Origin: Escherichia coli | Lineage (GTDB): Bacteria > Pseudomonadota > Gammaproteobacteria > Enterobacterales > Enterobacteriaceae | Length of the DNA: 51,807 bases | NCBI RefSeq assembly: GCF_003334765.1 | Contig: NZ_QOWT01000029.1 | Strand: one strand, 5' to 3' | Shown: piece by piece, positions 16,326 to 18,517 of the stretch | How the letters are laid out: every line of letters begins with the position of its first letter | Numbering within the stretch: the first letter of the stretch is position 1 | The notes under the pieces: model-generated | Database searches by the model: none | What the model was told of the DNA's origin: nothing | The model's input: only the letters and a program-made list of their open reading frames with translations | Position numbers and translations under genes: made by a program

Positions 16326-17342
16326 ATGTCCACATTACGCCTGCTCATCTCTGACTCTTACGACCCGTGGTTTAACCTGGCGGTGGAAGAGTGTATTTTT
16401 CGCCAGATGCCCGCCACGCAGCGCGTTCTGTTTCTCTGGCGCAATGCCGACACCGTGGTGATTGGTCGCGCACAGAACCCGTGGAAAGAGTGTAATACCC
16501 GGCGGATGGAAGAAGATAACGTCCGCCTGGCGCGGCGCAGCAGCGGTGGCGGCGCGGTGTTCCACGATCTCGGTAATACCTGCTTTACCTTTATGGCTGG
16601 CAAGCCGGAGTACGATAAAACTATCTCCACGTCGATTGTGCTCAATGCTCTGAACGCGCTCGGCGTCAGCGCCGAAGCGTCCGGCCGTAACGATCTGGTG
16701 GTGAAAACCGCCGAAGGCGACCGCAAAGTCTCAGGCTCAGCCTATCGCGAAACTAAAGATCGCGGCTTCCATCATGGCACCTTGCTACTCAATGCTGACC
16801 TTAGCCGTCTGGCAAACTATCTCAACCCGGATAAAAAGAAACTGGCGGCGAAAGGCATTACGTCGGTACGTTCCCGCGTGACCAATCTGACCGAATTGCT
16901 GCCGGGGATCACCCATGAGCAGGTTTGCGAGGCCATAACCGAGGCCTTTTTCGCCCATTATGGCGAGCGCGTGGAAGCGGAAATCATCTCCCCGGACAAA
17001 ACGCCAGACTTGCCAAACTTCACCGAAACCTTTGCCCGCCAGAGTAGCTGGGAATGGAACTTCGGTCAGGCTCCGGCATTCTCGCATCTGCTGGATGAAC
17101 GCTTTACCTGGGGCGGCGTGGAACTGCATTTCGACGTTGAAAAAGGCCATATCACCCGCGCCCAGGTGTTTACCGACAGCCTCAACCCCGCACCTCTGGA
17201 AGCTCTCGCCGGGCGACTGCAAGGCTGCCTGTACCGCGCGGATATGCTGCAACAGGAGTGCGAAGCGCTGTTGGTTGACTTCCCGGAACAGGAAAAAGAG
17301 CTACGGGAGTTGTCGACGTGGATAGCGGGGGCGGTAAGGTAA
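16326..17342 (+). CDS. lplA: Lipoate-protein ligase A
   Basis: 338-aa ORF recognised as LplA. Confidence 0.95.
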
Positions 17343-17373
17343 CTCACTGATTTAAATATCCAGGGAAGGAAAT

Positions 17374-17637
17374 ATGATCGATCTGGAAAACCAGGAACGG
17401 GAGATTATCAATTTAATGTTCAGCCAGGGTATATCCTGGCTAACCGCCGTGCGTATCAGGCATAAACTATCACTTGCTGAAGTAAGTAAAATGTTAGGTA
17501 TCTCCATTAATTCTCTAAAACAGATCGAAAAGACGGAACGGCTTAGTTCAAACATCAAAAGCAAAATGGCAGGAATTTATGGTTGTCCACCAGAGTTGCT
17601 GATATGCCCTTCCTGGATGACGGCTGAACATAAATGA
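17374..17637 (+). CDS. Small XRE-type HTH protein; possibly the N-terminal remnant of HipA-like kinase YjjJ/HipH
   Basis: 87-aa ORF with Shine-Dalgarno GGGAAGGA 4 nt before the ATG, 32 bp after lplA stop; helix-turn-helix signature LSLAEVSKMLGISINSLKQIE; no kinase domain follows. Confidence 0.6.
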   Translation: MIDLENQEREIINLMFSQGISWLTAVRIRHKLSLAEVSKMLGISINSLKQIEKTERLSSNIKSKMAGIYGCPPELLICPSWMTAEHK

Positions 17638-17735
17638 ATAGATTCGTGAATAGATACTTGAATGGATTTTATTTTCTATCCATATGAAAAATAATAGTAA
17701 ATCTATAAATCAGTTGCTATTGATGAATAGATGCT

Positions 17736-17764
17736 AAAAAGCCGGAGCAGTCTCCCGCTCCGGC
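17736..17764 (-). terminator. Rho-independent terminator of the deo operon
   Basis: 8-bp stem GCCGGAGC/GCTCCGGC followed on the minus strand by a T-run (AAAAA on plus strand), 35 bp past deoD stop. Confidence 0.7.
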
Positions 17765-17797
17765 TTCACAAGGCAATCGCCTTTCAGCGAAACACAA

Positions 17798-18517
17798 TTA
17801 CTCTTTATCGCCCAACAGAACGGATTCCAGTGCGATTTTGATCATGTCGTTGAAGGTGGTCTGACGCTCAGCGGCAGTGGTCTGCTCGTGAGTGCGGATG
17901 TGGTCAGACACGGTGCAGATGGTCAGGGCTTTCGCGCCAAATTCTGCAGCGACGCCGTAGATACCAGCTGCTTCCATTTCCACGCCGAGGATGCCGTATT
18001 TTTCCATCACGTCGAACATTTCGCCGTCCGGAGAGTAGAACAGGTCAGCGGAGAACAGGTTACCAACGCGAGCATCAACGCCCAGTGCTTTAGCCGCGTC
18101 TACCGCGTTACGCACCATGTCAAAGTCAGCGATAGCGGCAAAGTCATGGTCTTTAAAACGGATACGGTTAACTTTGGAATCGGTGCAGGCACCCATACCG
18201 ATAACGACGTCGCGCAGTTTTACGTGTGGCAGAACAGCGCCACAGGAGCCTACGCGGATAATTTTCTTCACGCCGAAATCGGTGATCAGTTCTTTGGTGT
18301 AGATGGAGCAGGACGGGATACCCATACCGTGACCCATTACGGAAATTTTGCGGCCTTTGTAAGTACCGGTGAAGCCCAGCATACCGCGAACGTTGTTCAC
18401 TTCACGGGCATCTTCAAGGAAAGTTTCAGCAATATACTTCGCACGCAGCGGGTCGCCTGGCATCAAAACTACGTCAGCGAAATCGCCCATTTCTGCATTA
18501 ATGTGTGGGGTAGCCAT
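17798..18517 (-). CDS. deoD: Purine nucleoside phosphorylase DeoD
   Basis: ORF track 258 aa; start moved to [12 protein letters not shown] to give 239 aa. Confidence 0.95.

Follow-up and report, generated by a model that had tools for sequence, protein, structure and literature searches.

An orphaned hipH control region, probably read by HipH, in the lplA–deoD junction of Escherichia coli

The short direct repeats in the lplA–deoD junction of the window (the whole stretch of E. coli DNA that was analysed, 51 807 nucleotides) are almost certainly a hipH control element that stayed behind when the gene was lost. The overall explanation that we favour, and hold to be probable, is that of an orphaned hipH control region, an element read by HipH, which persists here as a relic. 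HipH (YjjJ) is a HipA-family kinase toxin without an antitoxin gene, and the comparative pattern described below gives a likely operator and a candidate binder for it.

Direct repeats with an exact 12-bp period

The 9-mer TGAATAGAT is found at 17635–17643, 17647–17655 and 17724–17732, at the three places named in the original prediction, and its first copy overlaps the stop codon of the neighboring helix-turn-helix (HTH) gene, as was also noted there: the TGA at 17635–17637 ends an 87-aa ORF (17374..17637). Two details needed correction. The variant copy TGAATGGAT, placed earlier at 17658, actually occupies 17659–17667 (a one-base error), and the first three copies, described as 11–12 bp apart, are spaced by exactly 12 and 12 bp; the distance from the third to the fourth copy, in plus-strand order, is 65 bp. 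Read on the minus strand the repeats are ATCTATTCA, with three boxes at an exact 12-bp period and a fourth box 65 bp off. The features of the element and its flanks are as follows.

17629–17631, minus strand: relic of the hipH ATG, where the homology to the K-12 deoD–hipH intergenic region ends
17635–17643, minus strand: proximal box 3, ATCTATTCA, closest to the former hipH start codon and aligned to K-12 box 3
17647–17655, minus strand: proximal box 2, ATCTATTCA, 12 bp from box 3; its K-12 counterpart lies inside the Reg-Seq site +30..+45
17659–17667, minus strand: proximal box 1, variant ATCCATTCA, 12 bp from box 2
17668–17723, minus strand: spacer of 56 bp, the location of the hipH promoter in hipH-bearing genomes
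17724–17732, minus strand: distal box, ATCTATTCA, next after the deoD terminator; its start lies 65 bp upstream of that of proximal box 1
17735–17766, minus strand: deoD intrinsic terminator, with 10-bp arms at 17739–17748 and 17757–17766, then a T-run
17343–17628, plus strand: replacement segment of 286 bp, which holds the 87-aa XRE-type ORF (17374–17637, plus strand) and is outside the array

Towards deoD the element is bounded by the deoD terminator, whose sequence is the same in K-12 and E. albertii; the distal box is 2 bp from its T-run. The element itself has no dyad symmetry: its repeats are direct repeats only, and the sole inverted repeat is that of the terminator. ARG boxes, the cre tag TTCAC-N6-TTCAC, NarL heptamers and PhoB/OmpR-type boxes were considered as possible matches and set aside for apparent misfits in spacing or sequence.

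Enrichment of the 9-mer, which had been proposed as a check, was found in the 51.8-kb window: TGAATRGAT has four matches on the two strands versus 0.74 expected, and one out of 100 shuffles had four matches anywhere. Since the four copies lie inside 98 bp and three of them are in exact register, chance is ruled out, and the repeats are real. The region is AT-rich, and a 12-bp unit has slipped in one genome (see below), so one might think of fortuitous AT-rich similarity, or of slippage or repair scars of a deletion; but against an expectation of 0.74 per window and with the identical arrangement present in genomes that were never deleted, this reading has next to no chance of being right, and the comparative data refute it.

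Replacement of hipH and retention of its control region

The local gene order is serB (minus strand), ytjB/smp (plus), lplA (plus, 16326–17342), the 87-aa ORF (plus), deoD (minus, from 17798), deoB and deoA. By alignment, 17629–17797 of the window is homologous to the 166-bp deoD–hipH intergenic region of K-12 (yjjJ is named hipH in the current NC_000913.3 annotation), with the four boxes in register. The limits of homology between the two alleles are the hipH ATG (17629–17631, minus strand) on one side and the lplA stop codon on the other. K-12 has AAATCTATTCA-AGTATCTATTCA-CGAATCTATTCA-TTA-ATG(hipH) and a fourth box directly past the deoD terminator, i.e. the same 1+3 register as the window. 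Thus 286 unrelated bp (17343–17628) have replaced the 1.33-kb hipH coding sequence, and the XRE ORF takes its final two codons and its stop from the antisense of the old hipH leader. A homologue search found no HipH encoded in any part of the window. Because no HipH ORF begins 0–30 nt past the last box, where the ATG alone remains, the array is an orphan and not a working hipH promoter.

In other respects the window array has the make-up of hipH arrays elsewhere: at least two ATCTATTCA boxes (at most one mismatch) in head-to-tail orientation at a 12-bp period; a distal box 64–66 bp upstream of the first proximal box, at the terminator of the upstream gene, as in arrays of the enterobacterial type; and a location between deoD and lplA/smp, which Salmonella, Cedecea and Erwinia share.

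The lplA–deoD arrangement of the window (at least 80% of the 455-bp interval) is found in 4036 out of 5426 complete E. coli genomes. In 1348 of the 5426, K-12 included, yjjJ stands in place of the XRE segment, and it is never found at a second site. The array is kept in more than 97% of E. coli genomes, with either allele. We conclude that hipH was lost by precise gene replacement in about three quarters of the complete E. coli genomes, whereas its control region was retained. The earlier suggestion that the repeats may be scars of a deletion event is right in that a gene replacement did happen; the repeats, however, are older than this event and are the hipH control region left over from it.

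Two other interpretations of the replaced segment were rejected. It is not a degraded hipH, as there is no hipH similarity past the ATG; and a minus-strand ORF of 70–87 aa past the relic ATG (17352..17564) is an antisense frame of the XRE ORF, which we judged spurious.

Other variants of the locus were observed. A third allele is found in E. coli WB61 (L125, 1998–2189), where hipH ends after ∼137 nt and a deletion runs into the lplA 3′ end; the remnant is the winged-helix-coding part alone (annotated as a partial ‘transcriptional regulator’) and represents an independent loss of the kinase. In E. coli TB354 (L004, 2545–3380), a hipH-bearing genome, the triple array and the deoD terminator are separated by an inserted IS200C copy, so that the proximal boxes are cut from their upstream flank. 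The allele-specific spacer of the window also has an inverted repeat, ATGGAT-N10-ATCCAT (17662–17683), which is absent from the K-12 spacer; it is the reverse arrangement of the HipB half-site pair, and the HipB consensus is not matched.

The array accompanies hipH across genera

Comparison loci were retrieved by protein similarity, not by motif, from E. albertii, Salmonella enterica, Cedecea davisae and Erwinia tasmaniensis, together with a deoD-linked homologue (L165). All of these loci have deoD–hipH synteny, the distal box and a proximal array at a 12-bp period; the proximal boxes begin 64–66 bp downstream of the distal box, and the ATG follows 0–3 nt past the last box. There are three proximal boxes (four in L165). 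The comparison that had been called for shows these boxes again, in unchanged register, outside Escherichia. The shared synteny and array indicate that hipH at deoD is ancestral in Enterobacterales and that the window allele is derived.

A strict YjjJ peptide-pattern scan of genome contigs returned E. albertii only, and the collection was widened via protein databases, plasmids and IMG/VR. Metagenomes were scanned with the pattern ATTCA-N3-ATCTATTCA-N3-ATCTATTCA, which matched at least 120 contigs; among the 120 matches listed, at least 36 contigs have a HipH homologue (33–95% identical to K-12 HipH) 0–30 nt past the last box. The divergent HipH genes among these listed matches have two to six tandem boxes, always at 12 bp, and box arrays also precede HipH homologues that are only 33–40% identical to K-12 HipH, including those of phage-plasmids. 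The 12-bp period holds in the ∼50 hipH loci examined, with one 11-bp interval (L169). When the repeat units are compared, the 9-bp core is almost invariant, the preceding base is A or T and the remaining 3-bp linker is free.

At least ∼30 metagenome contigs of bacterial or phage appearance carry similar 12-bp arrays but no HipH in the stretch analysed; the array is therefore not exclusive to hipH. These contigs carry three to five ATCTATTCA boxes (e.g. L013, L021, L027, L039, L085, L090, L096/L064, L101, L113 and L118), and in L013 an unrelated ORF of 356 aa follows the array. The HipH-less arrays may represent orphan operators, other targets or tandem repeats of an unrelated kind.

The spacer between the distal and proximal boxes is exactly 56 bp in the window (17668–17723), in K-12 and in E. 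albertii (2513–2568 of L001 and 2409–2464 of L003). The spacers of K-12 and E. albertii are only ∼64% identical, and those of K-12 and the window ∼41%; the flanking boxes and the deoD terminator, by contrast, are almost identical. In hipH-bearing loci a −10-like TATAAA/TAATAA, often TGn-extended, abuts box 1, and a −35-like TTTACC is found 17 bp upstream in many of them; the promoter placement is our own reading of these conserved −10- and −35-like hexamers. Consensus promoter and terminator scans of both alleles gave nothing useful, and a sigma-70 consensus scan called no promoter on the minus strand at the array.

The original prediction, a regulator-binding array possibly for the adjacent HTH protein, stands in its first part, as the array is a deeply conserved cis-element and in K-12 lies on a repressor-type site (see below). 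Its second part does not: the array tracks hipH instead, and is older and more widespread than the XRE gene, which is confined to Escherichia/Shigella. That gene is adjacent to the array, and its product is a weak but credible XRE/HTH_3 protein, which is what makes an XRE operator conceivable. However, site and gene do not co-occur, since K-12, E. albertii, Salmonella, Erwinia and Cedecea have the array but not the ORF. Homologues of the ORF were found in Escherichia/Shigella only, many of them shortened versions, and the matches further out are phage regulators of only 30–37% identity. The array is also 3′ of the ORF and is made of direct repeats, with no dyad half-sites. In eight XRE-allele genomes, sampled evenly along the similarity ranking, the ORF is broken in four, where it is annotated as a pseudogene, and the boxes are still there: three have an internal stop (codon 50, CAG to TAG) and one has a frameshift (loci L130–L133); the ORF of the window is intact. 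From these pseudogenes and the many shortened database versions, it appears that decay of the XRE gene is under way in much of the species. We consider it highly improbable that the array is the operator of the 87-aa protein.

Published experiments at the hipH promoter

The HTH of YjjJ/HipH was proposed in an earlier study as a possible DNA binder, and the control of the kinase was stated there as unknown (mBio 2021, PMC8262856). The HTH is required for HipH toxicity, and c-di-GMP induces hipH via the native promoter, by a route that was not identified (eLife 2024, PMC11452175). Reg-Seq described a yjjJ promoter with two repressor-type sites, one assigned to MarA and the other without a factor (Ireland et al. 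2020, PMC7567609); its supplementary tables place the sites at −24..+18 and +30..+45 relative to coordinate 4621716. On NC_000913.3, +30..+45 is TCTATTCACGAATCTA, which comprises box 2 and the first bases of box 3, and +45 is the edge of the mutagenised window of that study. In the same numbering box 1 of K-12 spans +17..+25 and its distal box −48..−40, with the ATG at +53. The array thus coincides with an experimentally mapped repressor-type site in K-12. A literature search for the 9-mer returned primer coincidences only, and a search for a HipH operator found no paper describing these boxes.

The repeats could also be imagined to act in RNA, as a leader element for translation or stability of a hipH mRNA that has no visible Shine–Dalgarno sequence: boxes 2 and 3 fall downstream of the likely transcription start and ahead of the ATG, and the Reg-Seq footprint, being in transcribed sequence, could be an effect on the mRNA. 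But the distal box, which is upstream of the promoter and so outside any hipH transcript, is equally conserved; an Rfam 15 covariance-model search of 17250–17900 on both strands gave no match at E ≤ 1; and covariation of the repeats with a protein recognition helix (next section) is unexpected for an RNA element. A leader function is, in our view, very unlikely.

A ChIP-exo experiment on K-12 with myc-tagged YjjJ yielded no peaks (PMC8464067); this could be a false negative for a tightly repressed toxin. The c-di-GMP response and the MarA site beside the boxes indicate that other factors also act at the hipH promoter.

Box sequence changes with the HipH recognition helix

Loci for the comparison of recognition helices and boxes were picked by protein only, from chromosomes, plasmids and IMG/VR viral contigs, and nine cluster representatives were chosen by helix type before their DNA was inspected. 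Where the recognition helix is SQ(A/P)TxSR, at least two boxes are found within 170 bp upstream in 13 out of 16 distinct loci; with other recognition helices, at least two boxes are found in none of nine loci (Fisher p = 1.1e-4, with loci counted as independent and phylogeny uncorrected). The array is absent at two loci encoding a HipH with an SQPTxSR helix, on an Aeromonas plasmid and a Diaphorobacter plasmid. The nine loci with other helices carry different repeats at the start codon, e.g. AATCGTTACA, TTCGTAACTTAATT and AATCTTCTCA. The helices and their upstream repeats are:

NRTTLMR: AATCGTTACA
(N/T)R(M/P/T)TL(S/A)R: TTCGTAAC..ATT, also TTCGTAAC(T/A)..ATT
SVATLHR: AATCTTCTCA
SRATLMR: AAATCGTTTCA
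DRATLLR: AATCGTTGCA
SQPSFSR: ATCAATTCA

In other-helix loci (L153–L158 from IMG/VR, L171, L141, L143 and L139) the repeats are seen at the start codon and again ∼100 bp upstream. The pairing of sequences suggests a family-wide code relating helix to operator.

The helix SQxTxSR and the wing motif G..R...YAL hardly vary among the array-associated HipH proteins, whose identity is otherwise 33–40%. Pfam does not recognise the N-terminal domain of HipH (scores are sub-threshold), and a PDB sequence search with HipH found no relative. The AlphaFold2 model of residues 1–101 is a winged helix (pLDDT 96), with helices at 3–8, 15–22 and 26–35 and the wing at 39–53, followed by a small beta subdomain. 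The closest PDB structures found by Foldseek are ArsR/SmtB-type repressors (SqrR, HlyU, CzrA and NolR); these matches are weak (E ∼0.1), with an rmsd of 1.6–2.2 Å over 52–55 residues and ∼30% identity to SqrR and HlyU. As hipH is monocistronic, and as the pairing with the boxes spans hosts from Enterobacterales to beta-proteobacteria as well as phage-plasmids, HipH itself is the simplest reader. Sequence pairing, the structural model and the Reg-Seq site on boxes 2 and 3 of K-12 together point to the N-terminal winged helix of HipH as the likely, if putative, binder of the boxes.

The boxes might instead be a hipH control element read by another host factor, e.g. a c-di-GMP mediator or another repressor, and in that case may still be occupied in this genome. 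Such a factor would agree with the ChIP-exo experiment without YjjJ binding sites (PMC8464067), with the c-di-GMP induction via the native hipH promoter (PMC11452175), with a Reg-Seq site at +30..+45 that has no assigned factor and a MarA site adjacent (PMC7567609) and with the retention of the array in more than 97% of E. coli genomes irrespective of the allele. However, the same box is found with hipH in Enterobacterales chromosomes, IncY phage-plasmids, Proteus and soil and freshwater contigs, where monocistronic hipH is the sole constant, and the box sequence shifts with the recognition helix of HipH; the factor would need to be conserved, and to covary, in all of these hosts. We regard a reader other than HipH as unlikely.

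The array in genomes without hipH

In the eight sampled XRE-allele genomes, boxes 2 and 3 are intact in seven. The remaining genome, E. coli S1-CAM-04-C (L133), has lost exactly one 12-bp unit, the equivalent of 17647–17658 of the window, and is left with two proximal boxes, so box copy number varies by slippage. Box 1 occurs as ATCCATTCA, ATCTATTCA and ATACATTCA in the sample, and the distal box is once ATTTATTCA. Variable sites number three out of 36 bp in the boxes versus ∼14 out of 127 bp in the other intergenic bases; as this variability matches that of the flanks, there is no sign of extra constraint on the boxes, in a sample that is small and of low power. The box variability fits a relic. 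As hipH is gone from this locus, a cognate binding protein is most likely missing, which would leave the array a neutral relic, and one that probably serves no purpose in this genome at present.

About 30 E. coli plasmids of 90–100 kb, and near-identical IMG/VR viral contigs (L146–L151), encode a HipH that is 35% identical to K-12 HipH. The plasmid examined (L138; CP099272.1, 1350–1490) types as IncY, and its HipH has an SQPTISR helix and ATCTATTCA boxes of its own. Recognition of the orphan array on the chromosome by a HipH from a mobile element is conceivable in principle. The array might have been co-opted, either as a landing site or decoy for a plasmid- or prophage-borne HipH, or for antisense transcription that is driven or blocked across the XRE ORF. 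The 35%-identical HipH of the E. coli IncY phage-plasmids, with its SQPTISR helix and own boxes, and the three intact proximal boxes in seven out of eight XRE-allele genomes are in keeping with co-option; on the other side, no minus-strand promoter is predicted, the boxes vary about as much as their flanks and a whole unit has been lost in one genome. Co-option has a very small probability in our estimate, and we retain the reading of the array as a hipH control region that is a relic here.

A wider speculation, to which we give a low probability, is that HipH kinases make up a large family of one-protein, self-repressing toxin modules with a 12-bp direct-repeat code (ATCTATTCA for SQ(A/P)TxSR and other repeats for other helices), and that the orphan arrays (in ∼74% of E. 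coli chromosomes) are read in trans by HipH of IncY/P1-like phage-plasmids. If true, chromosomal sites would be coupled to mobile toxins as decoy, by titration or by addiction cross-talk.

Proposed mechanism and significance

In the ancestral enterobacterial order, deoD and its terminator are followed by the distal box, a promoter spacer of 56 bp, the three boxes with their strict 12-bp period and, last, the hipH ATG. In the lineage of the window allele the hipH coding sequence was swapped for a short unrelated segment bearing the XRE gene on the other strand, with the boxes surviving as an orphan. In hipH-bearing genomes, one ArsR-like winged helix of HipH would occupy each box in head-to-tail orientation; the strict 12-bp period across the family suggests protein–protein contacts rather than simple helical phasing. 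With the three proximal boxes filled, HipH would sit over the −10 region and the transcription start and reach into the leader, and the distal box, about six helical turns upstream on the far side of the promoter, may allow looping or wrapping of the DNA, leading to autorepression of hipH. Such a circuit would be a self-contained counterpart of HipB-mediated hipBA autoregulation.

The comparative pattern (a 9-bp box repeated every 12 bp, with a distal copy ∼65 bp away, that covaries with the recognition helix) accounts for the Reg-Seq footprint. The loss of hipH in most E. coli matters for extrapolating from K-12 results on HipH in persistence and biofilms, and for the annotation of this intergenic region.

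Comparison with known systems

Functionally, the closest known system is the autoregulation of hipBA via HipB operators, from which the hipH boxes differ in symmetry, geometry and presumed binder. The hipBA operators are HipB-bound TATCC-N8-GGATA palindromes, with four copies across the hipBA promoter (summarised in PMC8262856). Both systems have several operator copies over the promoter of a HipA-family kinase toxin, and in both autorepression is presumed to be exerted by the HTH of the module itself. But the hipBA sites are palindromic, whereas the hipH boxes are 9-bp direct repeats at a 12-bp period with an additional distal copy; the reader of hipBA is a separate XRE-type HipB dimer, whereas that of the hipH boxes would be a winged helix fused to the kinase; and the toxin gene is missing from the window. 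Allowing at most two mismatches, TATCC-N8-GGATA has 16 matches in the window versus 13.2 expected, and none in 17629–17766.

Winged helices of the OmpR/PhoB class (which read, e.g., the pho boxes) are described as binding head-to-tail on direct repeats about one helical turn apart, over a promoter. The likeness of the hipH boxes to these sites is a functional analogy only: the families are unrelated, the period is a strict 12 bp as opposed to 10–11 bp, and HipH has no receiver domain. The ArsR/SmtB family (SqrR, HlyU, CzrA and NolR) gives the best structural matches to the modelled N-terminal domain of HipH; ArsR-type proteins, however, bind as dimers to inverted repeats, whereas in HipH the domain continues into a beta subdomain and a kinase, and the sites presumed for it are direct repeats.

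The yjjJ site +30..+45 of Reg-Seq (PMC7567609) is the K-12 counterpart of boxes 2 and 3, i.e. the same element. Reg-Seq covered only the part inside its mutagenised window, and the repeat structure, the distal box and the conservation went unnoted; the window allele differs from it in lacking hipH. The hipH boxes are best described as a variant of toxin–antitoxin-style autoregulatory operators, of which the copy in the window is an orphan.
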